From Acaryochloris marina MBIC11017 (GTDB taxonomy: Bacteria > Cyanobacteriota > Cyanobacteriia > Thermosynechococcales > Thermosynechococcaceae), in NCBI RefSeq assembly GCF_000018105.1, contig NC_009927.1, positions 180,001-212,000 on the forward strand: a DNA stretch of 32,000 nt, read 5' to 3'. The translations under genes and the position numbers were made by a program. Positions 8,307-26,310 of the stretch are shown one piece after another; position 1 is the first letter of the stretch, and every line of letters starts with the position of its first letter. The notes beneath the pieces are model-generated. The model was not told where the DNA came from and ran no database searches. It saw only the letters and a list, made by a program, of their open reading frames with translations.

Positions 8307-8407
8307 GCCTACCCCAGAAATTAGCATAACTGGACTGACCTTATTGATGGCAAGGATACTGAGTTTCTTTATGCTGAATGGCGTCCTTTCTTTGATCACA
8401 TCTAACG

Positions 8408-8545
8408 ATGAATACTGAATTGCCCATCATCCAGAAAACCTACGACCTGATTAAATGGTATGTCCCGATCATCAATCGATTGCCCGGAGTTCATCGGTTT
8501 CAACTGGGAGAAAAGAGCAGACCATTAAAATTCGTAAAAGGGTAA
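8408..8545 (+). pseudogene. avd: truncated avd (DGR accessory variability determinant), 45 codons
   Basis: [36 protein letters not shown] matches my recollection of the N-terminus of cyanobacterial four-helix-bundle Avd proteins (about 115-130 aa). The frame degenerates and stops where the conserved 3' flank of the 8558..9394 gene begins. Confidence 0.55.
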
Positions 8546-8557
8546 GAGGGTATAGGA

Positions 8558-9394: not shown

Positions 9395-9436
9395 TGGAAA
9401 ATTCTTAAGAAAGTAATAGGGTAAAAGGGTAAAGGG

Positions 9437-12400
9437 CTACGGAAGAGACCTGGGCGCGGAACAAACGACTCGAAAACCGATAAGGTTGTCGCGGCCACCG
9501 GGGCCGTCGTTGAGGCGGGAAGCAGAGCGGCAATTCCTCGGAGGGCCGAGCCAGGAGCCGCCGCGACGCATCCGACGAGTGCTTTCATTCTCAGACAACC
9601 AAGCACTCCCATCCGTGGGTGCATCATAGTAATTGACATGCCAATAGTCTTGGCACCATTCCCAAACATTTCCATGCATGTCACTGAGACCAAACGCATT
9701 GGCAAAACTAAAATAATCTATAGGTGTTGTTTCTCCTCTTCTTTCACCTTTTGGACCATCTACAAAAGCACTTCCGCTGTAGTTAGCGACATCAGTAGTG
9801 ATCATGTCACCAAAGTGGAACGGGGTAGTGGTGCCCGCTCGACAGGCATATTCCCATTCGGCCTCCGTGGGTAATCGGTATTCACGGCCCGTGTATCTAG
9901 AAAGACGGTCACAAAACTCTATCGCGTCGAACCAGGATACTTTTTCTATTGGCCTATTATCCCCTTTGAATCTAGCTGGATCAGTCTCTAGTTCACGCTC
10001 AATCTGAGGTTGATTTGCAACGACTCGCCACTGAGCCTGGGTAATCGGGTAACGGCCTATAAAAAAGGACTCAACTGTAACTTGATGCTGAGGACCTTCA
10101 CGAACAAGCCTCTCAGGTTCAGTGTTTGGTGAACCCATCATAAAGGTACCAGCAGGTATTGATACCATTTCTAAATCTATTTTATCTAGTAGCCGCTCTA
10201 TATATCTATTTGCTGACTGTTGGTGTTGTTCCGTTTCCCATTTTTTCTGGCTCAAAATCAACTTAGCAACTGTAAAATCAAAGGATTCCACATTGATCGC
10301 ATCAGATATAGATTCCTCTGGCTGCAACCTTAAAATCGTGAAATCTCCTGTTTGCAACGGTGGCGGAAAGATATCTTGTTGAGAAGGCGGTACAAGGAGT
10401 GGATCATCCCAAAGGAAGGCTAGATCCCTAGCCCAATGGAATAATGGATTATCCTCTGTTGCTGCAAGACGAACGGCGAACACCTTCATGGGAATCTGCT
10501 CCATTGTTCCGTTGAGGATGTTCTCATTAAGAAACTGTTGCCAATTATCAGTGATTTTTTCTTTACGACTCCACAATACAATTGGAGTACCATTTTCAAG
10601 TACTCCTCTAACTTCTGCACTTTGGAAACCAGAGCCAAGGGTCAAGCCTAATCGAGAGCCTTGACTTAACGAGATCAGATCTTCAGGTTGACCAAAGGGC
10701 CAATTATCAAATGCATCGTTGGAATTATCGTTCCAACGTTCTTGCAACTGTGCCCACTGTAATTGCAATTTTTGGGTATATTGAAGACTCTCAACGCGCT
10801 CTTTTAAGCGCAACACTACAAAATTACAGTCCCTGCCAATCCCTATAGGATCATCGGTATTTGATAGAGAGGGGATGCCCATCTGTTCTATCGGTAAATC
10901 TAGTAAACTCTGGGGAAGAAACAGATGGATAGTGAAAACAGTCTTTTCAGTTTGGGTACGGGCTTGCTCTAATAAGCTGGCTAAAACACTTGGAATATCT
11001 TGAAAGGTAATCCCCTCAGATAATCTAGAGTCGCTACTACCATTTCCGTATCGATTGATATCCAAGGTAGATAAATACTGAACACCTTCTCCTGTCTGGG
11101 CATTGTAATTCTTGGGATTTGGCACCAACCAAGCGTCGACAAAGTACTGATCGGCCTTGGGACTACGTTCATCAAACGAGATAAGTAAAGTAGTGAGGGG
11201 CACTTTCGGAAGAATTTCTATGTCATTGGCAAGTACCCCTTCATCAAACTCGAATGCTTCGAGTTCAGGGAAGTTGATATATTCTGAAACTTGGTAGGTT
11301 AGGGTCTCATGGGTGAAACCTTCCAACCAAGCCACTTCATTTTGACGATTTTCTAAGCCTGAATCGTCTTGCCTCTGTTGACTCTCTAATTGGCGCACGA
11401 TTTCAGCAAAATCTGACCCAGCTGTACGTAAAATCTGAGCCGTCACTTTGGCAAAGGCTTTTAATCCATATTGGTCTACCTCATCTTTCAGATCAGGAGA
11501 TAGTAAGAGAGCTTGGAAATCAGCCAGTGTACAATTCAATCGTTCTGCGACATGTTGAGATACTTTTTCGATCACCTCAAGCTTGTCTACATTGGGTAGA
11601 ACATCCAGCAGGCGGTTGCGTACCGTCTCTGGAAAAAGATATTGTACGACTTCAGACTCTAACTCTGGTGGTTGTTCAGGTGCTTTGGTTAGTAGCCCTC
11701 CCAAAAACACCTCGGCCACAGGTAGGGGGGATGAACCAGGTAAGAACTCATCTGAAGCACGGATAAGTCGCATTACAGGCAGAGTTATAACAGGTGCTGC
11801 GGATAACAACGCAGCTAATCGCCGAGCTTCTGGCGTTGCCCTTAACCGAAAGTCTTCTAGCAAGCCATCAACAATTTCTTCTGACTCCAATTCGCTGGAT
11901 GTTGGGGTTGCGGACCATCCTGTTGAAGGCAACATAAAGCCTGGAGCTGAGTAGCGTCGATCTCCCGCTAACATTCGGCTCCAAGCACCAAGATATTCAC
12001 TATCACTCGTGATGATAGGAATACAGACTGGTGATGAGGATTGGGTTTCCTGGGTTTGGTCTGGTTCTTGATCACTCCGACGGCGACCACGATTCACAGT
12101 TGATCGCAAAGACATATAAATTGGGGTTAGTTTGGTGTTTTTTGCTCCCGGTGTTCGACTACGAACAGCCACATACTCTCCAATCCCTAATGCAGTTCGT
12201 TTCCACATCCAATCGGGTAACACTTGCCAGATCGCCGTGGGTGTTGAATCTCCCCAAAGGGACAATATTGGCTGCAACGAACCATCCCACCAGTAGTTGG
12301 CTGTGCAATCACTAAAGACTAAGATCAATCGCCGAGCATCGGGAGTTAAAAGTGCGTTAGGAGAGCGTAGTACTGGATCTGGGGCAGCACAGATGCCCAC

Positions 12401-13042
12401 TTCCCCCTGCTTCACATTGAGTTGCCAAACTCGAAAATCACGAAAAGAGCCATAACAGCGTAGCAACCTCCTTATATCTTGGATTAACCTCTGCCAAAGA
12501 TCCATCGCTGGGCTGCTATCAATGACCAAGGCCACTTCATACCACGGTTCTTGGTCCGGTTCTAGGATCGGGGACCAGATATCAGTTTCAGCAATGCGCT
12601 CAACTGTCTCAGCTTCATTCACTGAACTGCAAAACTGGGAATCAATTTGCTTCAAGATAGGCTTCAGTGCCCTGACTAGGGGTAAGGTTTCATCCAGAAT
12701 GTCAGGGTCAGGAATAGAGATGGGTAAAGCTTTTTGGGGAAGTTTCCCCGAAGGCAACTCCGGTGCAACGCCAAAGTCCGGTTCGTCTACCTCGTCATTC
12801 TGGTTATCATTGTCGTCATCCTCTTCGTTTCCTGCATCCTCTTCGTTTCCATTTTCCAAGTCGAGATTGTCATCATCAACATCCTCAAGCTCCAGGTTGT
12901 CATCAGGATCTTTGTTCTCTTGATCGACATCACTAACATCAAATTTCTCTGGTTCGCGCAATGCCAGCCATAGGATTTCAGCTATTTCAGTAGGGTCTAG
13001 CTTATATTCAGTCAGAGCGGACACAAATTGCTCAGTACTCAT
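9437..13042 (-). CDS. large multidomain protein: short N-terminal helical module, acidic linker, vWA-like domain, long middle region, C-terminal FGE-sulfatase-fold sensor (DGR target 3)
   Basis: vWA-like strand/MIDAS region YEVALVIDSSPAMDLW with a later LILVFSDCTANYW. D/E/N-rich linker at aa 36-90. The C-terminal 270 aa carry all FGS signatures ([10 protein letters not shown] ... RRGGSW...CRSASR...[10 protein letters not shown]). The start lies 14 nt after the MoxR stop. Confidence 0.85.
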   Translation of the reverse strand: MSTEQFVSALTEYKLDPTEIAEILWLALREPEKFDVSDVDQENKDPDDNLELEDVDDDNLDLENGNEEDAGNEEDDDNDNQNDEVDEPDFGVAPELPSGKLPQKALPISIPDPDILDETLPLVRALKPILKQIDSQFCSSVNEAETVERIAETDIWSPILEPDQEPWYEVALVIDSSPAMDLWQRLIQDIRRLLRCYGSFRDFRVWQLNVKQGEVGICAAPDPVLRSPNALLTPDARRLILVFSDCTANYWWDGSLQPILSLWGDSTPTAIWQVLPDWMWKRTALGIGEYVAVRSRTPGAKNTKLTPIYMSLRSTVNRGRRRSDQEPDQTQETQSSSPVCIPIITSDSEYLGAWSRMLAGDRRYSAPGFMLPSTGWSATPTSSELESEEIVDGLLEDFRLRATPEARRLAALLSAAPVITLPVMRLIRASDEFLPGSSPLPVAEVFLGGLLTKAPEQPPELESEVVQYLFPETVRNRLLDVLPNVDKLEVIEKVSQHVAERLNCTLADFQALLLSPDLKDEVDQYGLKAFAKVTAQILRTAGSDFAEIVRQLESQQRQDDSGLENRQNEVAWLEGFTHETLTYQVSEYINFPELEAFEFDEGVLANDIEILPKVPLTTLLISFDERSPKADQYFVDAWLVPNPKNYNAQTGEGVQYLSTLDINRYGNGSSDSRLSEGITFQDIPSVLASLLEQARTQTEKTVFTIHLFLPQSLLDLPIEQMGIPSLSNTDDPIGIGRDCNFVVLRLKERVESLQYTQKLQLQWAQLQERWNDNSNDAFDNWPFGQPEDLISLSQGSRLGLTLGSGFQSAEVRGVLENGTPIVLWSRKEKITDNWQQFLNENILNGTMEQIPMKVFAVRLAATEDNPLFHWARDLAFLWDDPLLVPPSQQDIFPPPLQTGDFTILRLQPEESISDAINVESFDFTVAKLILSQKKWETEQHQQSANRYIERLLDKIDLEMVSIPAGTFMMGSPNTEPERLVREGPQHQVTVESFFIGRYPITQAQWRVVANQPQIERELETDPARFKGDNRPIEKVSWFDAIEFCDRLSRYTGREYRLPTEAEWEYACRAGTTTPFHFGDMITTDVANYSGSAFVDGPKGERRGETTPIDYFSFANAFGLSDMHGNVWEWCQDYWHVNYYDAPTDGSAWLSENESTRRMRRGGSWLGPPRNCRSASRLNDGPGGRDNLIGFRVVCSAPRSLP
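9450..9570 (-). repeat. DGR variable repeat VR3
   Basis: Aligns with the TR. Encodes [37 protein letters not shown]. Confidence 0.75.
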
Positions 13043-13056
13043 TTACAGCCAGCCTC

Positions 13057-14238
13057 TCAGGTCAAACGCCTTAGCAAAATCTGTTTGAGCATTTCAAGTT
13101 CAGTTTCTTTATCCTCTTCACTCAAACCCGAACCCGATAGCTGAGACTGGCGAACCATGTAAATTAAATTGAGGAGCTGATCCGTTGCCAAAGAAGACTG
13201 TTTACGCTGAAGATCCTTGGCAAAGTTCTCAATCAATTGTGCAACTTTTGGTTCTAATTCTGACCAGGGCAGTTCTGTCTTAGGGCGGTCTTTCCGCTCA
13301 AAATGAGCACCTACTATATGGGTTAAAACGGCACTGTCAGAAGGATCTGGCATCGTGATTCGCAGACAGCGGCGCAAAAAGGCGGGGGGAAAGTCACGTT
13401 CTCCGTTACTAGTCATAATCACCAAGGGGAACTCATAACAAGTAACCTTGCCTTGCTCAATGTCAGCAGGGAGACCTTCATCCTCTGTACGGACTGGAAC
13501 AGGCACATCCGTTTTGTAGCGGACGAGTTCAGGTATCTCAAAACTACCTTCTTCAAAGAGGTTGAGAAGATCATTCGGTAAATTCAGCTCGCTTTTATCA
13601 ATTTCATCTATCAGCAATACTCGGGGTAAATGGGAAGGTAAAAAAGCGGTACCTACCGGGCCAAGTTGGATATAATCGCCAAGATTTCTACCTTGTTTTA
13701 ATTCATCAATTTTGTTGTGATCTAATGGCTGATCGTCCGACTTTGCCAGCAGCAACTGGAGTTCAAGTTCCGATTTATCAAATTGGGTGTCCTGCAAACG
13801 GGCAATCGCATCATAGCGATACTGGGCATCAGAAAGCTTGGAACGAGTGGTAATGGGCCAGAGCAAAACTGGCCCCAGTTGTAATTCATAGGCGATCGCA
13901 TAGGCTAAAGAGGTCTTACCTGAACCTGGATTTCCCGTGATAAGTAGTGGACGTCGCAATGCCAAGGCTGAGTTTATAGCTGAAATAATTTCAGATTGCC
14001 TACCTTCAGATTGACGGATACGAAAGCTTTCGCCACGTTCTTTTGAACGAGTATCAAGACGATTTGAGTCTCGCAATTGCTTCCAGCGAGTTTTACTAGC
14101 ACCAGCCCACTTATCCTCAAAGATTGCTTGTGACATAAACTGCCGCCATGCGGGTCGCTCCTGAATAGGTTTCAGGGCGGCTTGGCGGGGTGTCCTATCT
14201 TCATTGGGTTGGGCTGTAAAAAATTTCCAGTCAGTCAT
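13057..14238 (-). CDS. MoxR-like AAA+ ATPase
   Basis: Walker A LLITGNPGSGKTSLA, Walker B VLLIDEIDKS, sensor-1 VIMTSN, Arg-finger region PPAFLRRC. Single AAA+ module of 393 aa. Operonic with the vWA gene, which is the classic MoxR-vWA pairing. Confidence 0.85.
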   Translation of the reverse strand: MTDWKFFTAQPNEDRTPRQAALKPIQERPAWRQFMSQAIFEDKWAGASKTRWKQLRDSNRLDTRSKERGESFRIRQSEGRQSEIISAINSALALRRPLLITGNPGSGKTSLAYAIAYELQLGPVLLWPITTRSKLSDAQYRYDAIARLQDTQFDKSELELQLLLAKSDDQPLDHNKIDELKQGRNLGDYIQLGPVGTAFLPSHLPRVLLIDEIDKSELNLPNDLLNLFEEGSFEIPELVRYKTDVPVPVRTEDEGLPADIEQGKVTCYEFPLVIMTSNGERDFPPAFLRRCLRITMPDPSDSAVLTHIVGAHFERKDRPKTELPWSELEPKVAQLIENFAKDLQRKQSSLATDQLLNLIYMVRQSQLSGSGLSEEDKETELEMLKQILLRRLT

Positions 14239-14264
14239 AGTGGAATCACCAATCTTTTGGGCTT

Positions 14265-16211
14265 TTAAGTCGGTTGCGTCAACCGACCGGATTCATTGAC
14301 AGCTAATGTAGGTAAGCACGGTATCCGGGTGCAATTATCAAATAAAAACCCCAGTTCTTGAATCTTTTTTCGGTGGGTCAAAATTGACTCTCCCAAGGCA
14401 GCAGATTCCGTAAAATTCTCGGGTTTCAACACTTTATCCACAGTCTTTTTGAATTCATCCCCATTTACAGGAGTTTCATAAGTCCACAACCAAAGTGGCA
14501 CTTTCTCTTCAATCACTCCTGAAATTAAGCTTCTTAATTCATCTATATCTTCTGGCAATGTCTCCCAAAGTTTAAAGACCAGTTTCTCCGGTAATTCGTC
14601 TTCAAATATTTCATCCGTGAAACACTCTACGCAACAGGTATGTTGATCTAGAGGTTGTTGCATAGTTTTTAACTGCTGCATTCTAACCTTTAAATCTTTA
14701 ATCCATAATTCAGACCAAAGTGGATCTAATAATCGATCTAATGAGCGAACAACAGTGTTGTATGGAAATCGCCAAAGTGGCTTACGACGTGTTTTTCCTA
14801 AACTCGTCCAAATTTTCCATTTGTGAACAGGCTGCCCAAAATGTTGCCAAGACAAGAAAATCTCAACCGCTCTCACTTCCCCCGCATTGGGAATTACTTC
14901 TGATAAGTGCTCCCATACTTGTTCAATCGAGCATTTAGGATAATCGGTTAATAAACTTGTTCTTGTTTGTTCTCCGCAAACATAGAGTTCCGCCAAAATT
15001 CGAACGGTATCTACCGTAGCACTTGCATCACCAGGTTCCGTATCTACAACAGGCTCTAATGTGACCAGAAGATATTTCTGACTCGGTTCTTGCTTTGGGT
15101 CAACTTCAAGCTCGGTGGGTGCGTTAGCGTCATACCATACCTGCCATTCAGGTTTTATTTCACATTCATTCTCATTGTTAGGAAAGTCTTGTAACTTTTT
15201 GATCAGATGACCGACCCAAGACACTGCCAACACCTGATCGTCCAACCGAATAAGGGCCTGCTTCAACGCGGCGAAGGTTTCAATCGAGCCTAGTAAATCG
15301 TCTTTACGATTGTCTAAAACCTCCCTCAGTGCAGCTTCAAGAAAATCTAGATCATAATCTCCCAAGCATATAAATAAATCGTCCCAAAACTTAGTCTCAA
15401 CCTTATAAGAAGTTTTCCCTACTCCAGGAATTCTGGGTTTAGGGTCATAATTTGCCAACAGGTGAAAAGCTAAAGCACTGGCATGATGAGAAGCCTTTTG
15501 CTGACGCTTATCTTCAGATTTTTGCCCCTTGCCATCATTCTTATGATCAATCAAGTCTGAGATGCCCCGAATCACAATAGCGGATAGTGGTTTGTCACGG
15601 GCATTGACAGCCTCAAGGAATCCATATCCTTCCATCTCCACGGCCAAAGCATCACTATAATTTTTTCGCAGCAATTTATAAACGTTCGACTCTTTTGAAG
15701 CCACTACCTTTTCGCCAACAGCGATTGGCCCCACCCTAAGGCGAGGGGTTGTATTATAAGGCTGTTTAACTCTTGCCAACCAATTTGGTGCTTCACTTCG
15801 GGCTTCTGCCTTGGCTTCCTCTACCAGGCTGAAGCCACTCAAGCCAATGTGAGGTCGTGGTTTGAATTCTTCCTCAGCCTTACCGGATTCATAGCCATAG
15901 ATTTTTGTAGACGCAACGACATCACCTATATCTACATCTTTTAGACCTCCCGCTACACCGACAAAGAAAACAACATCAGGATCAAAATATGTAATGGCCC
16001 GTTCTGTTTGTAGGGCAGATCTTGAGTCACCAGCTCCAGTCTGCACGATGCCTACTGTCCATATGCGACCATTCGCTTTAAATGTCCCCTTCTCATATCG
16101 ATTTCCTTCAGGATGAATAATGCGCGTGGGATCGGCGACAAACTTTCTTACTTCTTTAAATTCAACGGGTAATGCTGTCAGAATGACGGCTTTCAAGGAA
16201 TCCTGAACCAT
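14265..16211 (-). CDS. nucleoside phosphorylase/nucleosidase-fold (PNP_UDP_1-like) effector fused to a ~400-aa C-terminal region (vWA-MoxR-associated, VMAP-like)
   Basis: N-terminal 250 aa: AVILTALPVEF, VQTGAGDSRSAL, FFVGVAGGL, AVEMEGYGF and VIRGISDL. These are the conserved strands and loops of the MTA/SAH-nucleosidase / PNP fold. The stop lies 26 nt upstream of the MoxR start. Confidence 0.8.
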   Translation of the reverse strand: MVQDSLKAVILTALPVEFKEVRKFVADPTRIIHPEGNRYEKGTFKANGRIWTVGIVQTGAGDSRSALQTERAITYFDPDVVFFVGVAGGLKDVDIGDVVASTKIYGYESGKAEEEFKPRPHIGLSGFSLVEEAKAEARSEAPNWLARVKQPYNTTPRLRVGPIAVGEKVVASKESNVYKLLRKNYSDALAVEMEGYGFLEAVNARDKPLSAIVIRGISDLIDHKNDGKGQKSEDKRQQKASHHASALAFHLLANYDPKPRIPGVGKTSYKVETKFWDDLFICLGDYDLDFLEAALREVLDNRKDDLLGSIETFAALKQALIRLDDQVLAVSWVGHLIKKLQDFPNNENECEIKPEWQVWYDANAPTELEVDPKQEPSQKYLLVTLEPVVDTEPGDASATVDTVRILAELYVCGEQTRTSLLTDYPKCSIEQVWEHLSEVIPNAGEVRAVEIFLSWQHFGQPVHKWKIWTSLGKTRRKPLWRFPYNTVVRSLDRLLDPLWSELWIKDLKVRMQQLKTMQQPLDQHTCCVECFTDEIFEDELPEKLVFKLWETLPEDIDELRSLISGVIEEKVPLWLWTYETPVNGDEFKKTVDKVLKPENFTESAALGESILTHRKKIQELGFLFDNCTRIPCLPTLAVNESGRLTQPT

Positions 16212-16298
16212 TCAAATTTGTGATTTTTTTAGGGTTTCTAGTCTAATGCTCAGTAGAAAATACAAGTATAGTGATTAGGTAATACCATATTTAGAATA

Positions 16299-16853
16299 AT
16301 GGATCGAACTGAGAAAACATTACAAATATTTTTGGAAGAATATCGTGTCCTCAAAGCTGAACAAAATAGTCGAATCGGATTTCGAGACAATCTACTCTAT
16401 GTCACATTAGGTCTTTTTGGTGGAATCCTTTCTTTTGCCCTAACAAACGATAACGGGACAAACGCATTACTTGTTGTTCCTTGGGTCTGTATAGTTATGG
16501 GCTGGACCTATGTAGTCAATGATGAAAAGATTTCAGCGATAGGTCGCTATATTAGACACAATCTTGAAAAAAGGATTTCTAATCTCATTGAAGGGTCTGC
16601 AGATTCCGAATCTTTGTTTGGTTGGGAAAAAGCTCATCGCAGCGATTCTAAACGAACAAGTCGCAAATACTTACAGCTATTAGTAGACGAAGTTGCTTTT
16701 GTTTTTTCAGGCTTAGCAGCAATAGTTCTATTCTGCTTATCCAGTACTAATTGCCCAACCCCAATCATCATTTTAATAGCCTTTGAATCTTTCTTCCTCA
16801 TTAGTTTAGGAATCACAATTGCTATCTATGCTGATTTAGCAAAAGGACGCTGA
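16299..16853 (+). CDS. integral membrane protein (184 aa, about 4 TM), function unknown
   Basis: Hydrophobic segments LLYVTLGLFGGILSFAL, ALLVVPWVCIVMGWTYV, VAFVFSGLAAIVLFCL and IIILIAFESFFLISLGITIAIY. Divergent from the PNP-MoxR-vWA operon. Confidence 0.5.
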   Translation: MDRTEKTLQIFLEEYRVLKAEQNSRIGFRDNLLYVTLGLFGGILSFALTNDNGTNALLVVPWVCIVMGWTYVVNDEKISAIGRYIRHNLEKRISNLIEGSADSESLFGWEKAHRSDSKRTSRKYLQLLVDEVAFVFSGLAAIVLFCLSSTNCPTPIIILIAFESFFLISLGITIAIYADLAKGR

Positions 16854-16908
16854 ACTAGCCAGATTTCCAGTCATTATAAAAATTGCAAGAGGGAAAAAGG
16901 GTAAAGGG

Positions 16909-17709
16909 CTACTGAAGAGGCCTGGGCGCTGAACAAACTACTCGAAAACCGATATGGCTGAGGCGGCTCTCGGGGGAGTTGTAGGAGCGGCAAGCAGAGC
17001 GGCAATCCCACGGATAGCTGTACCAGGAGCCGCCGCGAATAACGCTAGAGTCATCAATTCTATCCCCCTCCCAAAAGGGGCTACCATCTGATGGCACGTC
17101 AAGGTAATCAGAGCCGTAGTAGTCTTGGCACCATTCCCAGACATTGCCATGCATATCATATAACCCCCAACGATTAGGGGAATAACTTTCAACAGCACTT
17201 GTTTGGCCTATCATTTCATCTTCTAAGTAATTTGCCAGTTTGGGAGTGATTTTTTGCCCAAAATGATATGCAGTCTGAGTTTCAGCTCTACAGGCATATT
17301 CCCACTGGGTTTCACTAGGTAAGTGAAAATTTTTTCCAGTCTTTGATGACAGGCGCTTGCAAAATTCTACTGCTTCATACCAACTTACCGACTCTACAGG
17401 GAAGTCATCACTTTCGAATGCTGAAGGTGATAGATCTACAGTTCCATCTTGTTCTTCATACCCGGCTACTACCCGCCACTGTTCCTGAGTAACAGGTGTA
17501 GTTCCCATCAAAAATTGAGGTAATTGGATACATTTTTGGCGTTGTTTATCTTGGGTGTCACCTGATTCATTTTCATCATTACTAATCCACAATTCCCCTG
17601 CAGGAATAAGCATTAATGTCAGTGGCACATCATCACCGAGATCTATGGTGTAGCTCTCATTCGTACACTCATATTCAAAGAGGGTGAGGGAATCAACAGT
17701 ATTAGCCAC
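16909..17709 (-). CDS. stand-alone FGE-sulfatase-fold protein, DGR target 4
   Basis: [42 protein letters not shown] and IRGGSW...CRSACR...[10 protein letters not shown]. More diverged in its N-terminal half than the other paralogues. Confidence 0.9.
   Translation of the reverse strand: MANTVDSLTLFEYECTNESYTIDLGDDVPLTLMLIPAGELWISNDENESGDTQDKQRQKCIQLPQFLMGTTPVTQEQWRVVAGYEEQDGTVDLSPSAFESDDFPVESVSWYEAVEFCKRLSSKTGKNFHLPSETQWEYACRAETQTAYHFGQKITPKLANYLEDEMIGQTSAVESYSPNRWGLYDMHGNVWEWCQDYYGSDYLDVPSDGSPFWEGDRIDDSSVIRGGSWYSYPWDCRSACRSYNSPESRLSHIGFRVVCSAPRPLQ
16922..17042 (-). repeat. DGR variable repeat VR4
   Basis: Encodes [37 protein letters not shown]. In the 81-nt variable core, all 16 mismatches to the TR are at TR adenines (hand alignment). 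Confidence 0.8.
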
Positions 17710-17855
17710 TGACCTAGAGAGAAGATGTTAGTGATTTTTAAGCAGATACATAATTTGATATTTGATCATTGTTGCACCATCTACTATATTTTTGGCCTTT
17801 CATAAGAATTTGCCTATCTATATAAATATAGGCCAACAATTTTTTGAGCTAGTCT
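17710..17855 (+). promoter_or_regulatory. candidate oriT / relaxase promoter region
   Basis: AT-rich intergenic segment directly upstream of the relaxase. It contains the inverted repeat TTGGCCT..(28 nt)..AGGCCAA enclosing GCCTAT-CTATATAA-ATAGGC (about 17793..17841). No nic site could be identified by eye. Confidence 0.3.
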
Positions 17856-20800
17856 ATGCTAAACATTACCACCATCAACTCAAATATCAAGGATGGGGCC
17901 AAGTACTACACCAAAGAAGAGAGTTACTACAGCCAAAACAAAGAAATTCAGAGCATGACTCAAACAGAATGGTTTGGCAGCATGGCACCGGATGAGCATT
18001 ACTCTGCCGAGCTTTTCACGGAGATGTTTTACGGCAACCTTCCCAACGGCGGGCGTATGCGAAATGAGGTCAAGGGAAAGGGCCAAGAACGCTTAGCTTA
18101 CGACCTTACATTCTCTGTTCCTGGTAAATCTCTCAGCATGTCTATCCACGGACCTAACGGAGATAAGCGACTCTGGAATGCCCACGTTGAGACTATCAAG
18201 GAAGTGCTGGCCATCGTAGAAGAACGCTACGCCGCCGCTAGAATTCAGGCCAACAATGATCGCCAAGTTGTGAAGACAAGCAGCATCGCCGCTGCCCTCG
18301 TCCACCACCATGAAACCAGAGCTGGGGATCCGCATGTACATACCCATGTCGTTCTTTTCAACGGCACCCTATGCCCGGACGGTGAATATAGGGCTATGTA
18401 TATCGAGCCTCTCATTAGAAGCGGTATTTTAGGCGATCTGTACGACCAGAAGATGGCCCTCAAAGTCCAAGAGCTGGGCTATGAAATCCGAGAGACAAAA
18501 ACAGGCTTTGACCTTGCCGGGGCTACAGATGAGCAGATTAAAAAATTCAGTAAGCGCTCAACGGAAATCGAGGATTATTTAAAAGAGAAAGGTTGGAGCA
18601 ACACCCCAAAAAATCGACAGAAGGCAACCTTTGAGACTCGAATCGGCAAGGATATTACGGAGTCATTAGAGCAGAAGCAGGAAAGATGGGGAGAAGAGAT
18701 GGCCTCAGTCGGTTTCCATGGCCTAACTCCTTCCGATCAACCTATCAAGCCTGAAAGCCAAGAGACACCCAGAGAGCTTTTAGACGCTGCTATCGAACAT
18801 CTAACAGAACATCAATCCTCGTTCAATGCCGAGGACATACAGCGGTTTGTGTTCTCTCACCTCCGAAGTTTTGATGAGAAGCCCTTGAACACCGAGATAT
18901 CCAAGCACCCGGACTTGCTAACTGCCTGGGATGGCCGACTGACTACACAGACCGCTGTCGATAGAGACCAACGAATTCTAGATATCGTCCTGTTTAAGGA
19001 TAGTAAGGTTGAACCGCTGAACCCAACCGCTGACTTTAGCGACACGATGTTAAACAGTGGTCAGGCCGAAGCCATGAAACGCTTACTCAGCTTTTCAGAT
19101 CAGTACCAAATCCTAAAGGGACTAGCAGGCACGGGGAAGACAACTGCTCTCGGCCTTGCAAGAGAGCAGTTACCCCCGGATGTCGATATCAAAGTTTTTG
19201 CACCTACCCACAACGCCAAACATCAAATCAGTGAGGCCTTTGGACTTAAGGGGGCAACCATAGCCAGCTTTGTTGTCAGCCCACCCCCAGAAGGGGCTAA
19301 CCAGCTTTGGATATTTGATGAAGCGGGCATGTTTGGCAGCGCAGACATGGAGAAGATACTTCAGAAAGCCGAACAGGTGGGGGCTAGGTGTTGGTTTGTC
19401 GGCGACACGGGTCAGAATGCCTCTATCTCTGCTGGTGCGCCTGTACGAATGCTGATGAATAGAGGGGTCACAGTTCACCGCCTTGACCAGATCATTAGAC
19501 AGCAAAACAAAGAACAGCTTAGGGCCGTTGAGCTTATCGCCGATGGTCACGGGGTTGAGGCTCTCAGAGCCTTAGAAAAAAATGGAAATATCAGAGAAGT
19601 CGAGGACTCGGAAACCAAGCTCACAAGTGCCGTTGCCTATTACATGGAGAAGCCTAAACATCGCCGAGACAAAACTCTCGTTGTGGTGGGGACCAATGCT
19701 GAGCGGTTTGGTTTTACCAAACTCCTAAGAGCCGAGCTTATCAAGGAAGGCCAGCTTACCAAGAATACAGAATTCACCCAGCTCCAGCGAAGAAACCTAT
19801 CTAAGGCCCAAAAGAAACGGGCCGAGAACTATAACAAGGGCGATTTACTGGTACTGCACAAGAAGCACCGACTCTATACCCAATTGCAGACCCATGTCCC
19901 TTATAAAGTCCTCGCCGTGGAGGGCAAAAAACTCAAGGTCCAATCACTGGGCGGTCGGAATTTCACCATCAATCCTGCAGAACATGAGTTAACCCAGGCT
20001 TATACGACAAGGCGCAATCAAATTGCTGTTGGTGATAAGCTCCGGTTCACTTCAACCAACATGAAAAAGGATATTCACAATAATGCTTTTTTGACCTGCA
20101 CCGATATCAAAGATCAGATTGCAACGGTCAAAGACAAACACGGTCGAGTGCATCACTTAGACCTCACCAAGCCCCTACAGATAGATCATGACTGGGCCAC
20201 TACCACTTATAGATCACAAGGTAGTACCAACTCAGAAACCCTCTATATTGCTAGCCTTAACCCTACCTCAGCTAGAGAATCCTTTTATGTTGGCATCTCC
20301 CGAAACAAGACTAAATACCTGACCGTATTTACGGAGGACCTGAGTAAGCTCCAAGAGTGGGTTGCACAGTCCAATGCTCAAGAGAACGCACTAGAGATAC
20401 TATTTGACCCCCATGCGGGCTGGAGTCCAACCTATGACAAGGAAGAACGGCCCTTTGGCTTGGATGAGGACACATGGACCGAGATGAAAGGTAGCGGTAT
20501 TCACCCCAACCTATTGACCTCGAACCATCTCCGAAGTGAAGCCCCCGATCCTTATGGATCTATCCGTGATAACCCACTAGTTGCAGCCCTCTTGGAGGCT
20601 GAGTTTACCAAGTCCAAATACGGCAAAGGCCAGGAAGTTACTGGCAAAATGAAACAATATCTACACGGTGCTTCGACAGTGGAAGGCCATACCGTCTATG
20701 ACCATGAAAAAGAATATGGTCGGATTGCTCAAGGTGGGGGTTGGATTGGTTATGGTGGCGTTGATTTGCTTTCAGTCATTGAGGGCAATCCTCAACCATC

Positions 20801-21809
20801 CCAGTATTGCCAGGTCAAACCTAAAACCCCCCGCATCTTTGACGGCAAAGAGAATAAGTATGAAACGCCGAAAGGGGTAGATCAACAAGTCTTCTTACCT
20901 CATATTCCCCATGAGATTGAGGAACGGATTTATCAGCGTAACGGTATCAGTCCCACCGCAGAGGAGCGGACTAAAGGTATCTGGTCTGTCGCGGACAAAT
21001 ACAATCTGCCCCTTGTCATCACAGAAGGCCTGAAAAAGACATGGGCATCCCTCAGCCAAGGTCACCTAACCGTAGGCTTGCCCGGTGTGACTGCCTTGTA
21101 CCGGGCTAAGAATGAACATGACGAGCGACTACCCCAGCGAGAGCTTACGGAATACGGCAAGGCCTTGGCTAAACCTGGCAGGCAAATCACGTTGGCCTTT
21201 GATCAAGACACGAAAGTATCGAGCATCCTAAATGTGCGCCGAGATTTGGTGAGAACAATCGAGCTAATGCAGACTAGGGGAGTTGTCTGCAAGATTGCCC
21301 AATGGAAGCCAGAGCTAGGTAAAGGCCTGGACGATCTAATTGTGAAAGCTGGCCCGAAAGCCTATAACCTTGCGATCGCAAATGCTGTTAGGCCTGATGC
21401 TGAAATTAAGCGTCACTATAGAACCCAGTACAACGCCATCACCAAGCGGGCTATAAAACGCTTCGGCGACATACCTAAAGAACGGCTGGACATGGAAGTT
21501 TACAGCTATTGCCTATCACCGGATAACGGCGCAACCATCAATGATGCCCATCGGTTCTTGTCCGCTTCGGATCACATGCGATCGGCTGAACCTGGGGACT
21601 ATAAGCGCTATATGCTGGCTATCCACAAAACCCATGGGATCTATCAGGATATTTTGGCCTCTGGTAAGCCACCTAATGAATTGGTGACAAAGCTGGTCGA
21701 GCATTCGGTTTATGAACAGCTAGCCGAAGAACTCAAAGAGAAAGACCTACTCTATCCAGAGCAGACCCTTTCAGATAATCAATCTCAGGGTTATTCAGTT
21801 GGGTTCTAG
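17856..21809 (+). CDS. MobF-type (TrwC/TraI-like) relaxase fused to a RecD-like helicase and a C-terminal Toprim (DUF3854-like) domain
   Basis: N-terminal Tyr pairs (AKYYTKEESYY). His-triad motif HHHETRAGDPHVHTHVVLFN. Helicase Walker A GLAGTGKTTAL, Walker B LWIFDEAGM and TTYRSQGST. C-terminal Toprim Glu VITEG and acidic AFDQDT. Confidence 0.9.
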   Translation: MLNITTINSNIKDGAKYYTKEESYYSQNKEIQSMTQTEWFGSMAPDEHYSAELFTEMFYGNLPNGGRMRNEVKGKGQERLAYDLTFSVPGKSLSMSIHGPNGDKRLWNAHVETIKEVLAIVEERYAAARIQANNDRQVVKTSSIAAALVHHHETRAGDPHVHTHVVLFNGTLCPDGEYRAMYIEPLIRSGILGDLYDQKMALKVQELGYEIRETKTGFDLAGATDEQIKKFSKRSTEIEDYLKEKGWSNTPKNRQKATFETRIGKDITESLEQKQERWGEEMASVGFHGLTPSDQPIKPESQETPRELLDAAIEHLTEHQSSFNAEDIQRFVFSHLRSFDEKPLNTEISKHPDLLTAWDGRLTTQTAVDRDQRILDIVLFKDSKVEPLNPTADFSDTMLNSGQAEAMKRLLSFSDQYQILKGLAGTGKTTALGLAREQLPPDVDIKVFAPTHNAKHQISEAFGLKGATIASFVVSPPPEGANQLWIFDEAGMFGSADMEKILQKAEQVGARCWFVGDTGQNASISAGAPVRMLMNRGVTVHRLDQIIRQQNKEQLRAVELIADGHGVEALRALEKNGNIREVEDSETKLTSAVAYYMEKPKHRRDKTLVVVGTNAERFGFTKLLRAELIKEGQLTKNTEFTQLQRRNLSKAQKKRAENYNKGDLLVLHKKHRLYTQLQTHVPYKVLAVEGKKLKVQSLGGRNFTINPAEHELTQAYTTRRNQIAVGDKLRFTSTNMKKDIHNNAFLTCTDIKDQIATVKDKHGRVHHLDLTKPLQIDHDWATTTYRSQGSTNSETLYIASLNPTSARESFYVGISRNKTKYLTVFTEDLSKLQEWVAQSNAQENALEILFDPHAGWSPTYDKEERPFGLDEDTWTEMKGSGIHPNLLTSNHLRSEAPDPYGSIRDNPLVAALLEAEFTKSKYGKGQEVTGKMKQYLHGASTVEGHTVYDHEKEYGRIAQGGGWIGYGGVDLLSVIEGNPQPSQYCQVKPKTPRIFDGKENKYETPKGVDQQVFLPHIPHEIEERIYQRNGISPTAEERTKGIWSVADKYNLPLVITEGLKKTWASLSQGHLTVGLPGVTALYRAKNEHDERLPQRELTEYGKALAKPGRQITLAFDQDTKVSSILNVRRDLVRTIELMQTRGVVCKIAQWKPELGKGLDDLIVKAGPKAYNLAIANAVRPDAEIKRHYRTQYNAITKRAIKRFGDIPKERLDMEVYSYCLSPDNGATINDAHRFLSASDHMRSAEPGDYKRYMLAIHKTHGIYQDILASGKPPNELVTKLVEHSVYEQLAEELKEKDLLYPEQTLSDNQSQGYSVGF

Positions 21810-22225
21810 GCCGGTTCTTGTTCCTTAGCTTTGGCCTTAGCCCGCACAAGGTTCCTCACCTTCAAGCCAACAAGACCCATGCCAACAATCACAAACGCAA
21901 TCCCCACAACGGGAATCAAAGGAAAGGAAGGACCGGCGACAGCGACAGGCGCACTAACTGGGCTGGCTGGCTCTTCCACGGGTATATAAGCGGGGGAAGA
22001 TTTATCTCTGGTCTCCCCTGGCACCGGTCCCTTGTTGATGGCTTCTAGGTCCACTTTTCGGTCAAATCTGAAAGCGACATCAAAGGAGGTAATTTCAACG
22101 CCGCATTCTCGGAAATCTGCAAAGGGAATCCTTAGTCGAGTGGAGTTTTTCGCGAAATCTTCCTTTGTCCATTCGCACATTGGTTTTGGCCTCGCTGGAT
22201 GTTGGCTAGCGAAAAGGGGCGACAC
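21806..22225 (-). CDS. tail-anchored membrane protein (139 aa)
   Basis: C-terminal TM LIPVVGIAFVIVGMGLVGL followed by a Lys-rich tail. Convergent with the relaxase and overlaps its stop by 4 nt. Confidence 0.4.
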   Translation of the reverse strand: MSPLFASQHPARPKPMCEWTKEDFAKNSTRLRIPFADFRECGVEITSFDVAFRFDRKVDLEAINKGPVPGETRDKSSPAYIPVEEPASPVSAPVAVAGPSFPLIPVVGIAFVIVGMGLVGLKVRNLVRAKAKAKEQEPA

Positions 22226-22266
22226 ACCTTATCACCCCTTTTTTACCATTAGTCTACGTTTTCTTG

Positions 22267-23802
22267 CTAGAAACTTTGAGAGACTGTCTGATCTTGTTGC
22301 TGGCTGTGTTCTTGCCGTTGAGCTTGATCCTGCTGAATATCAGGCCTAGCCATCAGCAGCTCATCAGACGCCGATTGAATAAGGTCATGTGCTGTATCAC
22401 GGGCCATATCTGGGCCATGTTTGCTCTCGATCGCTTTAATGTGTGGGTTGTTCTCCAGCAACATCGAGGTAATTTCAGCCTGTGAATGCCCGTTATTTAT
22501 GGCATTCTTAGCGATATCAACCACCTCATCAATGCCCGTAGATTGTACGCCCTCAGAGGCCTTCTGATAAAACCCTTGTGTTGTAGTCTCTGGGATGGTT
22601 TCAGCCGGTGCCGTCATCTTAATTTGCAACAAGTCTTGAACTTTTTGCATTGGATCGAAAACTTGGCCGTCTATAATCGACAGCAACAGCCTATTGCCCT
22701 GTCTAATCTCAAGAGTGCCTTTGAAGTTAGCAGGATCCTCTAGTGCTGCCTTGAACGCCGCCATCTGTTCATTAGAGACGCTGGTATGGTTTAGGTCTGG
22801 CTGACCATCTGACAGTCTGAATACCTCCTGATTATTAAAGAAGAACCGCATTCCATCAGCATTCATACCCTTGCCGGCTATCTCTGAGGCCAGGGCCTGA
22901 AAATAGTCTTGGGCGATTTTGTCTGGTTCTTGCTTGGATTTTGTTAAGAACTCTGGGATGCCATCGTCTAGATATTCTGGGGTTTCCTGTAGATCTGCAT
23001 CAGGTGCCTGTTTCTGGGGTTCATCCCTTAAGGTTTGCTCTGGTTTTTTCTCCTGTTTGGCCTGGGTCGTCTCCGGTTCGATCTGGGTTTCACTATTACT
23101 TAGTACCGTTGCCGGTGCATCTACCTTGTGACCGTTTTGGGTTTGAGGTTCCTGGGAGACGTTCTGCTGATTAGCTTGCTTAGGATCTTGATTATTACTC
23201 AACTTATTAAGCTCCTTTTGGACAAATTTTTCTGCATGAATCCCATACTCTCTAATGTTTTGATAGGAGCTGTGGATCCAATCTTGGACGTTTGAGAATA
23301 TGGCCTGGGTTTGGTCAATCGTTCGACCGATGGCCGTAGAGATTGGTAGTTGGGTCACATATTTAGCCACCATTGGCCCAGCGTCCATCATTGCCTTACC
23401 TACAGCCGTAGGGGCGAGATAACCCGCTAATGGCCGGGTCAGCATGTCCGACTTGCCTAACAAGTCAGCACTTCGGAGTGTCGCCCAATCATCAAAAGCC
23501 CGTTGCCGTGCCCAGTAAGCAAAACCGGGCTGTATGTTTTGACGCATTTCTGCAAAGTGCTTTGTGAGCTGAGCCTCCCTAAGACCATGCAGATTGTTTT
23601 GGATAAAATCAGTCCCCTGGCCGATGGCACCGGCTACCGCTGGACCGGCTAAAGGTAAGTGAGTGGCAGCACCAGCAACCAAGGCAGGCATGGCTAAAGT
23701 CTGAATCAACGGCTTACCCACCTTTAACAGGGGGTACTCGTCAAAAATCTCTTGCTCTGTTCGCCTGAGTTCCTGGTATTTATCGTTTATAGGATTTGCC
23801 AT
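22267..23802 (-). CDS. hypothetical conjugation-cluster protein (511 aa)
   Basis: Long ORF with a Gln/Pro/Glu-rich central linker. No motif recognised. Confidence 0.5.
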   Translation of the reverse strand: MANPINDKYQELRRTEQEIFDEYPLLKVGKPLIQTLAMPALVAGAATHLPLAGPAVAGAIGQGTDFIQNNLHGLREAQLTKHFAEMRQNIQPGFAYWARQRAFDDWATLRSADLLGKSDMLTRPLAGYLAPTAVGKAMMDAGPMVAKYVTQLPISTAIGRTIDQTQAIFSNVQDWIHSSYQNIREYGIHAEKFVQKELNKLSNNQDPKQANQQNVSQEPQTQNGHKVDAPATVLSNSETQIEPETTQAKQEKKPEQTLRDEPQKQAPDADLQETPEYLDDGIPEFLTKSKQEPDKIAQDYFQALASEIAGKGMNADGMRFFFNNQEVFRLSDGQPDLNHTSVSNEQMAAFKAALEDPANFKGTLEIRQGNRLLLSIIDGQVFDPMQKVQDLLQIKMTAPAETIPETTTQGFYQKASEGVQSTGIDEVVDIAKNAINNGHSQAEITSMLLENNPHIKAIESKHGPDMARDTAHDLIQSASDELLMARPDIQQDQAQRQEHSQQQDQTVSQSF

Positions 23803-23853
23803 TGCAGATCCTCATAGGTGTACACGTATTTGATAGGGGCCAAACCTCAAACA

Positions 23854-24297
23854 TCAAAAACTCTGGCCTTGGGATTGAGCTGGGGCCTGCTGTTGTTTTT
23901 GCATTAAATCCAACGCCTGCTTAAACTCTGGGGTATTCTTCTGCTGTTCGACTAATAGATCCTGTTTAGCGTCGGCAATAACATCTTGTTTTAGGCCTTC
24001 CACGTTTTCCGGGTACTGTTGGGCCGTCATCTGCACAGCTTGATGTTGATCCATAAAGACGCTTAGGGTCTTGTCGTCAGTACCAACGGCTAAAGCATCT
24101 CTGACGTTGTTAAATAAATCATCCGGTGACGTGTACGAAATTTTCACCTGTTGCTGTCGTTGTTGGTACAGGAAATAGATCCCTTCCACCAGCAATCTAA
24201 GTGAATCTTCTACCGCCTTTTCGCTTACCTGGCCTGCCTTATGACCGTCCTGGCTTAGGCTGTGGTCGTCCACGTATCTTTGTGATAAGTTGTCCAT
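23854..24297 (-). CDS. hypothetical protein (147 aa), Gln-rich
   Basis: ORF only. Lies in the same operon-like string as its neighbours. Confidence 0.45.
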   Translation of the reverse strand: MDNLSQRYVDDHSLSQDGHKAGQVSEKAVEDSLRLLVEGIYFLYQQRQQQVKISYTSPDDLFNNVRDALAVGTDDKTLSVFMDQHQAVQMTAQQYPENVEGLKQDVIADAKQDLLVEQQKNTPEFKQALDLMQKQQQAPAQSQGQSF

Positions 24298-24329
24298 ATT
24301 TTTCTGCCTTCCTTTGCTACTTTCTTGCT

Positions 24330-26183: not shown

Positions 26184-26310
26184 AAAATTACCCCATATAG
26201 ATTGTCTCTACTAGGGGTATAGGGGCTTGTTGTGGTGGGCCAAAATTAGGGAGCTGAATTGCCTTGAGCTGTTGGCCTAGGGTTGCCTCGTCGCGACACT
26301 ACTAGGCTTA

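Follow-up and report, generated by a model that had tools for sequence, protein, structure and literature searches.

Stand-alone FGS genes beside a vWA-MoxR-VMAP operon on an Acaryochloris plasmid are probably targets of a shared DGR that has lost its RT

Three stand-alone FGS genes on an Acaryochloris conjugative plasmid, together with the FGS domain fused to a nearby vWA-component protein, are probably the four target genes of one DGR, which would be integrated in a ternary conflict system of the VMAP-type vWA-MoxR class. The short proteins would serve this system as unattached sensors, and the diversifier itself appears to have been lost, leaving the variable regions (VRs) fixed. We place the probability of this combined reading at roughly 0.7. 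The initial annotation of the window (the whole stretch of DNA analyzed, 32 kb in length) recognized the linked, VR-bearing FGS paralogues, and this part of it stands. It missed the non-coding repeat copy that serves as template repeat (TR) and a deletion that affects avd and RT.

The three short genes lie on the minus strand as intact, complete ORFs with start codons, and no frameshift was seen in them. They are here called dn2 (7222 to 8004, 260 aa), dn1 (8558 to 9394, 278 aa), and up (16909 to 17709, 266 aa). By Pfam, PF03781 (FGE-sulfatase) spans residues 29 to 252 of dn2 (E = 1.7e-54), 28 to 270 of dn1 (E = 1.7e-53), and 33 to 258 of up (E = 1.4e-43), which bears out the earlier description of three proteins of ~260 to 280 aa that are nearly all FGS domain. 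The same model matches residues 958 to 1193 of the 1201-aa vWA-component protein (9437 to 13042, minus strand), and all four FGS-bearing genes therefore share one orientation, as had been noted. The dn1 gene starts 42 nt past the stop codon of the fusion gene, the TR lies 179 nt upstream of dn2 on the same strand, and the operon lies downstream of up, the fourth DGR target. Promoter and terminator scans around the three short genes returned sites no more frequent than in shuffled sequence.

No signal peptide or transmembrane segment was found in the stand-alone FGS proteins, nor any hydrophobic segment in the up protein. All NCBIfam matches to the enzyme families FGE, EgtB, PvdO, and GldK fall far under their curated cut-offs (for example, 110 to 159 bits against 500 for PvdO, and 84 to 115 bits against 350 for GldK). 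The best PDB match of the up protein by sequence is the DGR variable protein TvpA of Treponema denticola (2Y3C, E = 6e-25). This is also the best match by structure, with a TM score of 0.68 for an AF2 model of moderate quality (pLDDT 70.8). TvpA has the same FGE-type C-type-lectin fold with a C-terminal VR, and its DGR, which has several remote targets, likewise serves multiple target genes from one TR. Unlike TvpA, which is a surface lipoprotein, the window proteins are without signal peptides and belong to an intracellular conflict system.

The segments that contain the VRs and their flanks form a family of 161-nt direct repeats, all in one orientation, just as the initial annotation proposed. 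Relative to the copy at 7191 to 7351, which lies in and at the end of dn2, the copies at 8527 to 8687, 9406 to 9566, and 16878 to 17038 are 80 to 84% identical. A fifth copy, at 8142 to 8302, is non-coding and had been overlooked. The 3′ ends were originally described as near-identical over 120 to 170 nt. Some 160 nt are indeed common to the copies, but near-identity is confined to the final ~45 nt of coding sequence and the ~35 nt beyond the stop codon, and the differences in the remainder of the repeat fall at template-adenine positions.

The TR (8183 to 8302, minus strand) is AAC-rich, carries 12 AAY codons, and has a 112-nt core identical to that of the TR of pREC1, a plasmid of Acaryochloris MBIC10699. 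The VR of up (16922 to 17033, minus strand) is a 112-nt homolog of the TR that differs from it at 16 of 30 adenines and at 2 of 82 other positions, both of these changes being synonymous. The corresponding mismatches are 18/30 and 2/82 for the fusion gene (VR at 9450 to 9561), 12/30 and 3/82 for dn1 (8571 to 8682), and 9/30 and 3/82 for dn2 (7235 to 7346). Because the four gene copies differ from the TR mainly at adenines, it follows that four VRs were written from one template. Their organization as direct repeats is explained by the fact that every target must fit this template and bear identical homing signals. The claim that each copy has a VR of its own holds as well, with 11 to 15 amino acid differences over 38 codons in any pair, and the theoretical coding capacity of the TR is ~10^17 variants. 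Where relatives retain the RT, their TR/VR mismatches are adenine-biased as well, and this extends to the up orthologue of locus L013, which lies ~9 kb from its TR.

The sequence 3′ of the TR (8105 to 8182, minus strand; GGCAGATGGGAATCTGTC...GAAGAGTCCAG) contains a motif that recurs in Acaryochloris pREC1, Nostoc, Anabaena, Microcystis, and L013. From published DGR biology, this conserved sequence is presumed to be a structured spacer part of the DGR RNA. The VRs end with GCGCCCAGG(C/T)CTCTTC and the TR ends with GCGCCCAGCACTCTTC, beyond which the sequences diverge. This GC-rich 3′ end of the VRs resembles an IMH (initiation of mutagenic homing) element, and its TR counterpart resembles IMH*. 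Adenine-confined VR/TR mismatch, an IMH-like versus IMH*-like difference, and a C-type-lectin/FGE-type fold, by which DGR targets are recognized, are thus all found here.

Immediately after the stop codon of up is a polypyrimidine flank (16870 to 16908, minus strand; CCCTTTACCCTTTTTCCCTCTTGC), which each of the four VR copies has and the TR lacks. Inspection by eye revealed no evident hairpin or cruciform of the Bordetella phage type after the VR, and the polypyrimidine tract occupies this place instead. Across the clade, C+T content averages 78% in the 40 nt that follow the stop codons of FGS genes and 47% in the same interval of other ORFs (p ~ 1e-63). Such a tract follows DGR targets throughout the clade and is not the mark of a local duplication. 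The common 3′ segment reads 5′ to 3′ as the 112-nt VR, the IMH-like GC-rich end, the stop codon, and the polypyrimidine tract, the last of which may mark genes as targets in this DGR clade. The tract is a candidate homing signal that could sharpen DGR target prediction.

By their sequences, the four FGS genes are old paralogues, each with a positional orthologue in other cyanobacterial loci. Phylogenetic analysis recovers four ancient positional orthologue groups that are conserved across genera, with NJ support in 199 (up), 151 (dn1), 153 (dn2), and 135 (fused domain) of 200 bootstraps. Positional orthologues of up are present in L013, L019, and L026. Clustering by genome was obtained in 0 of 200 bootstraps, and there is therefore no sign in the tree of homogenization among FGS copies. 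The FGS scaffolds are under purifying selection, with pre-VR dN/dS values of 0.16 (dn1), 0.16 (dn2), and 0.27; the up lineage is left out of these values, its dS being saturated. The dn1 protein is 90% identical to its pREC1 orthologue and the dn2 protein 80% identical to its own, each pair giving the dN/dS of 0.16. Within the VRs, dS is only 0.03 to 0.15.

These data weigh on another proposal made initially, namely that the stand-alone copies are a silent cassette archive recombining into the expressed vWA-FGS fusion gene. They would then be donors without expression of their own, comparable to those of pilS/pilE or vls antigenic variation. Several same-orientation variable copies with conserved flanks are a feature shared with Neisseria pilE/pilS and Borrelia vlsE, and the arrangement as direct repeats in a single orientation would suit an archive. 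Furthermore, in MBIC10699 (pREC1) the fusion gene and its stand-alone neighbor share 100% identity over at least 120 nt immediately 5′ of the VR (-236 to -117 nt), with flanks at ~60%. This indicates that gene conversion between paralogues does occur, if only in this one tract of a relative. In the window, however, no conversion tract was found, and the copies are complete genes under selection. Their variation is adenine-templated and RT-derived, with no shuffling between copies, and the TR fully accounts for both the common 3′ sequence and its variation. L013 even holds stand-alone copies without a fusion gene to receive them. Given the adenine-specific mismatch to a single TR, the complete ORFs, the dN/dS of 0.16 to 0.27, the separate orthologue groups, and the clade-wide polypyrimidine flank, we have abandoned the archive proposal as extremely improbable. 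Instead of silent spares, the stand-alone FGS genes look like a source of variable binding proteins that are soluble, are expressed on their own, and belong with the vWA-MoxR-VMAP system.

The operon, on the minus strand, would encode all three components of this system. The VMAP component (14265 to 16211) combines an N-terminal PNP_UDP nucleosidase-type effector domain (PF01048, E = 4.9e-24, 85 bits; PADLOC PN-superfamily effector, E = 2.4e-15) with VMAP-C (PF20028, E = 2.5e-17, 64 bits). The MoxR-like AAA+ ATPase (13057 to 14238) matches PF07728 AAA_5 at 32.5 bits (cut-off 22); it matched no MoxR-specific model, and the syntenic pREC1 gene is annotated as a MoxR family ATPase. The vWA-component protein carries a SAV_2336 N-terminal domain (NCBIfam NF041121, 347.6 bits, cut-off 200) and VMAP-C (PF20028) ahead of its C-terminal FGS domain, and no Pfam vWA model scored. 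Between the operon and up is a 184-aa gene with four hydrophobic segments (16299 to 16853, plus strand), the 4-TM gene that had been described as divergent. The divergence holds with respect to the operon; with up, the gene is convergent. This gene has no match in Pfam, NCBIfam, or PADLOC, the last of which has no model for FGS, vWA, or 4-TM proteins. L013/L014 have an orthologue that matches it in position and relative strand, and their gene order is FGS, 184-aa gene, PNP-VMAP, MoxR, vWA, FGS, [RT-Avd], TR, FGS.

Linkage between short FGS genes and such operons extends well beyond this plasmid. Stand-alone FGS genes are present in 23 of 25 MoxR-linked DGR loci versus 2 of 18 loci without MoxR (Fisher p = 7.6e-8, a value that ignores phylogeny), and this association may stem from shared descent within the RT subclade. 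L019 and L026 each have three short FGS genes and one fused FGS domain, and in both the VMAP-MoxR-vWA operon opens with the up copy, which runs in the direction of the other genes. A complement of three short targets and one fusion is the largest observed and occurs in 2 of the 25 surveyed loci. Some relatives carry the domain as part of the vWA protein, and others have it only in stand-alone form. For example, the L013 vWA protein shares 62% identity with that of the window over residues 1 to 628 and lacks an FGS domain, the C-terminal parts being swapped between the two, and pREC4 carries a stand-alone FGS gene and a short vWA protein. The association with MoxR and the alternation of fused and free domains agree with the earlier suggestion of free receptors that feed the vWA system.

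It might be argued that the stand-alone FGS genes are instead the ancestral targets of the DGR, function independently of the ternary system (perhaps as decoys for invader proteins), and are linked to it only through proximity to the TR and RT. Cassettes of this RT clade canonically run target, avd, RT, TR, target, and DGRs commonly have remote and multiple CLec-only targets (Wu 2018; Schillinger 2012). Moreover, the in-trans role with the vWA protein is one that we infer from co-occurrence and from fusion and fission. Nevertheless, the near confinement of short FGS genes to MoxR-linked DGR loci, the leading position of up in the operons of L019 and L026, and the many loci in which the FGS domain is covalently fused to the vWA protein make such independence unlikely.

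The reading that we favor treats the short CLec-only targets as conserved positional lineages that are nearly confined to MoxR-linked DGRs and alternate with vWA-fused FGS domains. These three properties together yield a concrete, testable model of unattached sensors. Each stand-alone gene would produce a soluble, cytoplasmic protein of C-type-lectin fold with its own hypervariable binding surface. These proteins, as extra sensor subunits separate from the vWA protein, would widen the recognition repertoire of the vWA-MoxR-VMAP system, whose output would be the PNP-type nucleosidase effector, after the antigen-sensor model (Doré 2024). A bolder version holds that the sensors are interchangeable and dock in trans to form a split multi-receptor immune complex, with a single effector served by four binding modules that diversified separately and stem from ancient, distinct lineages, that the polypyrimidine tract is a new cis signal, and that RT loss fixed a useful repertoire. 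We regard this combination as doubtful.

The overall architecture of cyanobacterial DGRs joined to ternary systems has already been described (Kaur 2020; Doré 2024). The closest known systems are the multi-target cyanobacterial DGRs with VMAP-type vWA-MoxR components (Kaur et al. 2020 eLife; Doré et al. 2024 PNAS clades 5A/5E; Vallota-Eastman et al. 2020). As in these, the putative vWA component of the window ends in an FGS/CLec domain that is diversified from a nearby TR, and further short targets consist of CLec alone. A MoxR-like ATPase accompanies a VMAP protein whose effector is N-terminal, the proteins are predicted to be cytoplasmic, and the setting is a plasmid or defense island. Unlike them, the window has a truncated avd and a deleted RT. 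In addition, the group comprising Acaryochloris, L013, L019, and L026 has Avd-RT in the orientation opposite to that of the TR and targets, and the window effector is a PNP_UDP nucleosidase, whereas trypsin or TIR is commoner.

What is left of avd is a 45-codon remnant on the plus strand (8408 to 8545) that runs into a deletion junction at ~8512 to 8533. Positions 8420 to 8511 are 94.6% identical to positions 13550 to 13641 of pREC1, within its avd gene, and homology picks up again at pREC1 position 15001. Thus, relative to pREC1, ~1.35 to 1.36 kb comprising most of avd and the whole RT is gone. The junction is 100% identical in an independent assembly (L002). Because the RT is deleted, the variable ends now appear fixed, and the four VRs would represent "germline" specificities. 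Other DGRs are known to have kept TR and VRs while losing the RT by rearrangement, with IS200/IS605-family elements nearby as is also the case here (Thiohalocapsa PB-PSB1 DGR 4, 5, and 7 variants; A. marina MBIC11017; Schillinger et al. 2012). Unlike those examples, the window lost avd and RT by a clean microhomology deletion with no IS/MITE replacement. The window VRs also already bear non-adenine changes, unlike the cases that Schillinger et al. judged very recent. A second DGR locus of A. marina is reported in that work as well.

Perhaps RT and Avd are encoded elsewhere in the genome and act in trans, such that the TR and four VRs are still diversifying. The 112-nt TR core shares 100% identity with its pREC1 counterpart even though the flanking DNA is at ~80%, and the conserved sequence 3′ of the TR has been kept. 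Trans-acting RTs and RT-less DGR loci are also documented (Doré 2024; Wu 2018). Several observations speak against ongoing diversification. An ORF scan of the window, which covers 32 kb of the ~356-kb plasmid, identified no RT among the ORFs of sufficient size. No close RT was detected in any Acaryochloris species-representative genome by a scan that detects close relatives only, and Acaryochloris is absent from surveys of complete DGRs. The one RT reported for A. marina MBIC11017 is disrupted by insertion elements (Schillinger 2012). A protein-database search with an approximate RT N-terminal query, which gave nothing beyond generic RT fragments of cyanobacteria that could not be assigned to Acaryochloris, is given no weight.

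The VRs themselves likewise argue against diversification in trans. They are 100% identical, where covered, in six assemblies from six sequencing runs, all of which may go back to one laboratory strain. Non-adenine changes, mostly synonymous, have accumulated in all four window VRs (2 to 3 each), compared with none in 20 of 31 VRs from loci that keep the RT; such mismatches are present too in some RT-keeping loci (L026, L019, and L054). We therefore consider diversification in trans distinctly unlikely and retain the view that the VRs are probably fixed. The RT-less plasmid and the RT-intact pREC1 are a natural pair for studying whether the VRs are frozen and whether avd-RT supplied in trans restarts diversification.

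The up copy deserves separate mention because it had been singled out as the most diverged, and indeed its pre-VR amino acid identity to the other three is 38 to 43%, against 61 to 64% among those three. One might speculate that this copy alone is a decaying relic, freed from selection and heading toward a pseudogene. Since dS is saturated and dN/dS for this lineage is not estimable, a Tajima relative-rate test was used instead. It assigns 36 lineage-specific changes to up versus 13 to its L013 orthologue (p about 0.001 to 0.002), and the other three window copies show no acceleration. Furthermore, of the 116 positions with at least 90% conservation in the family, up departs from the family residue at 14, the highest count among 40 members (mean 3.9), so that this copy may be in decay and no longer functional. 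Changes also affect F-M-G-S, P-Q-H, and W-H, all of them conserved motifs. These findings suggest relaxed or altered constraint on up. Outright decay seems improbable, however, because the ORF has neither frameshift nor stop codon, both core motifs (WEYACRA and HGNVWEWC) persist along with the VR scaffold, and its two non-adenine VR changes are silent. Finally, the exact up protein is preserved in all assemblies.

Four FGE-sulfatase (FGS; PF03781) domains are encoded on the minus strand of the window. Three occur in stand-alone genes, here called dn2 (7222-8004, 260 aa), dn1 (8558-9394, 278 aa) and up (16909-17709, 266 aa), whose Pfam domain fills almost the entire protein, and the fourth (fus) is the C-terminus of a 1201-aa protein encoded at 9437-13042. 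ORF and Pfam spans thus bear out the initial annotation, as they do its observation that the 3′ ends and post-stop flanks of all four form direct repeats, which constitute a 161-nt family with 80-84% identity. A fifth member, absent from that annotation, lies at 8142-8302 between dn1 and dn2; it is non-coding and AAC-rich, with AAY at 12 of 38 codons. Across a 112-nt core, the four genic copies depart from this fifth copy at 9, 12, 16 and 18 of 30 adenines, while just 2-3 of the other 82 bases differ per copy. Because adenine-specific mismatches between a non-coding template and 3′-terminal targets are the signature of a DGR, the family is one DGR template repeat (TR) and four variable regions (VRs). 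At their 3′ ends the VRs read GCGCCCAGG(C/T)CTCTTC and the TR reads GCGCCCAGCACTCTTC, beyond which it diverges, in agreement with the published distinction between IMH (initiation of mutagenic homing) in VRs and IMH* in TRs. A conserved motif, GGCAGATGGGAATCTGTC...GAAGAGTCCAG, lies 3′ of the TR and recurs behind the TRs in Nostoc, Anabaena, Microcystis and metagenomic relatives. Pairwise, the VRs differ at 11-15 of 38 codons, and the theoretical coding capacity of the TR is ~10^17 variants. Furthermore, among solved structures the Treponema DGR variable protein TvpA is nearest to the 16909 protein, both by sequence (E=6e-25) and by fold (TM 0.68, from a moderate AF2 model with pLDDT 70.8).

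The arrangement belongs to an already described kind of system, since its features are covered by Kaur et al. (2020), Doré, Wu (2018), Schillinger (2012) and Vallota-Eastman (2020). Kaur et al. (2020) reported that ~80% of cyanobacterial VMAP ternary systems have FGS fused to their vWA component and linked these domains to DGRs, and multiple and remote DGR targets are documented (Wu 2018; Schillinger 2012; Vallota-Eastman 2020). What we add are four positional lineages of FGS targets, the concentration of short FGS genes in MoxR-linked loci, an avd-RT deletion with signs of frozen VRs, and a polypyrimidine tract 3′ of DGR targets.

Among public sequences, plasmid pREC1 of A. marina MBIC10699 (locus L007) comes closest to the window. 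The two conjugation backbones (window 17856-32000) share 98.4% identity, and seven backbone proteins are identical, five of them annotated in pREC1 as WP_0121671xx. The DGR/defence region (7191-17856) is only 70-85% identical or non-homologous, a disparity indicating that the defence cargo has been replaced at a single site of the plasmid, which lies between parM and the relaxase gene. At the syntenic site, pREC1 carries dn2 and the TR, then an IS200/605 element, followed by avd and RT (both on the opposite strand), and finally dn1, fus, MoxR and a trypsin-VMAP gene. Window positions 8420-8511 correspond to the first 92 nt of avd (94.6% identity), and homology restarts ~20 nt ahead of the RT stop codon. 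Relative to pREC1, ~1.35 kb are absent, comprising the remainder of avd and essentially the entire RT. What is left is a truncated avd of 45 codons that runs directly into the final ~20 nt of the RT reading frame (8408-8545, plus strand), with a GGnGA microhomology at the junction (~8512-8533). An independent assembly of this DNA carries an identical junction. IS200/IS605-type elements may drive rearrangements of the locus, given the element between TR and avd in pREC1 and a TnpB/IS605-family ORF (OrfB_IS605, Cas12f1-like TNB) in the window at 3468-4721 (plus strand). The avd-RT strand is opposite to the TR and every target in L007, in three other RT-seeded relative loci (L013, L019 and L026) and in the window remnant; in Nostoc, Microcystis, Anabaena and Leptolyngbya relatives all elements share one strand, arranged as target, avd, RT, TR, target.

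A Pfam scan of 20 RT-sized window ORFs revealed no RT, and the remaining ORFs (a few of 94-154 aa and those <140 aa at the far left) are all too short for a full RT. A DGR RT disrupted by insertion elements has been reported in A. marina MBIC11017 (Schillinger 2012), but it must represent a different locus because the window locus retains no RT fragment. The window VRs are most likely now frozen. An RT elsewhere in the genome could act on them in trans, as the 112-nt TR core still matches its pREC1 counterpart exactly even though its flanks are only ~80% identical. However, six independently assembled contigs, one from each of six public sequencing runs, match the window at 100% identity, including the junction and every VR reached, and no close relative of the pREC1 RT was found in the Acaryochloris species-representative genomes searched. 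Moreover, each of the four window VRs carries its 2-3 non-adenine changes, 6 of 10 being synonymous; the pREC1 VRs carry 0, 0 and 0, and none is present in 20 of the 31 VRs from eleven loci with a retained RT gene.

The FGS paralogues had been regarded as possible spare copies. A VR-free phylogeny, the check proposed with that idea, speaks against it. Synonymous sites between the window paralogues are saturated, and when the pre-VR domain is placed in a neighbour-joining tree together with those of relatives (200 bootstrap replicates), copies cluster by position rather than by genome. The up group unites the window, L013, L019 and L026 (199/200), the dn1 and dn2 groups each unite the window, L007, L013, L019 and L026 (151/200 and 153/200), and the fus group unites the window, L007, L019 and L026 (135/200), whereas window dn1, dn2 and fus never group together (0/200). 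The paralogues therefore appear to be neither recent nor spare. Scaffold dN/dS against pREC1 orthologues is 0.16 in both dn2 and dn1 and 0.27 in fus; the VRs themselves show a dS of just 0.03-0.15 and high dN. As anticipated in the initial annotation, the FGS genes of these relatives stay linked to the operon. Two metagenomic contigs, L013 and L014, hold the entire window gene order with avd and RT intact, adjoining BREX genes (FGS, a 184-aa membrane gene on the opposite strand, PNP-VMAP, MoxR, vWA, FGS, RT-Avd, TR, FGS). The L013 up orthologue has VR mismatches at adenines only, with its TR ~9 kb off. In L019 and L026, the VMAP-MoxR-vWA operon opens with up, on the same strand.

The post-stop flank of the window VR copies, CCCTTTACCCTTTTACCCT, is not templated by the TR, and therefore retrohoming cannot hold it uniform. 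Polypyrimidine tracts with CCCTTT-type motifs follow all four FGS genes (16870-16908, 9400-9436, 8520-8557 and 7185-7221). The shared flank noted initially is thus real, but it is a clade-wide trait rather than a product of local duplication. Among 132 FGS genes from RT-related loci (L007-L095), mean C+T in the 40 coding-strand nt after the stop is 78%, versus 47% for 533 other ORFs, and 88% versus 3% reach at least 70% pyrimidine (p~1e-63). The tract does not follow the TRs compared in the window and relatives, and none of the DGR literature that could be searched mentions it. It is perhaps a cis element for recognition of DGR targets, and not a recombination substrate. An alternative raised earlier, that silent cassettes recombine into the expressed fusion gene, is rejected, as the TR explains the shared 3′ variation, the flank is clade-wide, and the paralogues are old positional lineages under constraint. 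Exchange has left one trace in pREC1, where dn1 and fus are 100% identical over nt -236 to -117 relative to the stop (L007 15907-16150 versus 15025-15270), immediately 5′ of the VR, with ~60% identity on either side. This tract is a gene-conversion footprint, but the window has no such tract.

The stand-alone proteins had also been proposed to be free receptors or decoys that compete with or feed the vWA protein. Among 43 RT-seeded loci with enough flanking sequence in the genome collection, 23 of 25 MoxR-adjacent loci have at least one short FGS gene (stand-alone, 200-350 aa), versus 2 of 18 without MoxR (Fisher p=7.6e-8, uncorrected for phylogeny). One long fusion with one or two short FGS genes is the commonest layout; three short genes and one fusion occur at two loci. 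The window, pREC1, L019 and L026 all have FGS fused to the vWA protein. A comparison of the vWA proteins of the window (9437-13042), L013 (12561-14936) and L007 (15907-18561) reveals a conserved N-terminal 628 aa; the L013 protein shares 62% identity across residues 1-628, after which an unrelated ~170 aa replaces VMAP-C and FGS. The VMAP effector also varies between near-identical backbones (PNP nucleosidase in the window, trypsin and CU044_2847 in pREC1), and the operon is thus modular. No hydrophobic segments were found in the stand-alone FGS proteins. From the evolutionary alternation between fused and separate forms and the co-occurrence with MoxR loci, we infer that these soluble proteins might serve the vWA-MoxR-VMAP machine as extra sensors, a reading in line with the proposed receptors that feed the vWA protein. 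On pREC4 of MBIC10699 (L011), a stand-alone FGS gene (7920-8672) lies upstream of bpMoxR and short vWA genes with no RT nearby. Its VR-like, decayed end resembles the pREC1 TR with many non-adenine changes, and the gene could be a remote target that has decayed or one whose template was lost.

The 16909 copy is indeed the most diverged, with 38-43% pre-VR identity to the other three versus 61-64% among them, and its membership in the deep up lineage accounts for most of this. It has also evolved faster than its L013 orthologue, with 36 lineage-specific changes versus 13 (p~0.001-0.002); the other window copies exhibit no acceleration against pREC1 orthologues. At 14 of 116 strongly conserved family positions it is off-consensus, the maximum among 40 members. 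Its ORF is intact, as initially read, and core motifs are retained. Relaxed constraint and functional change are both possible. Next to it, a 184-aa protein (16299-16853, plus strand) has four hydrophobic segments and no family match. Because its position and relative orientation are conserved only in the PNP-VMAP module variant (L013/L014), that variant may use it as a membrane partner or effector.
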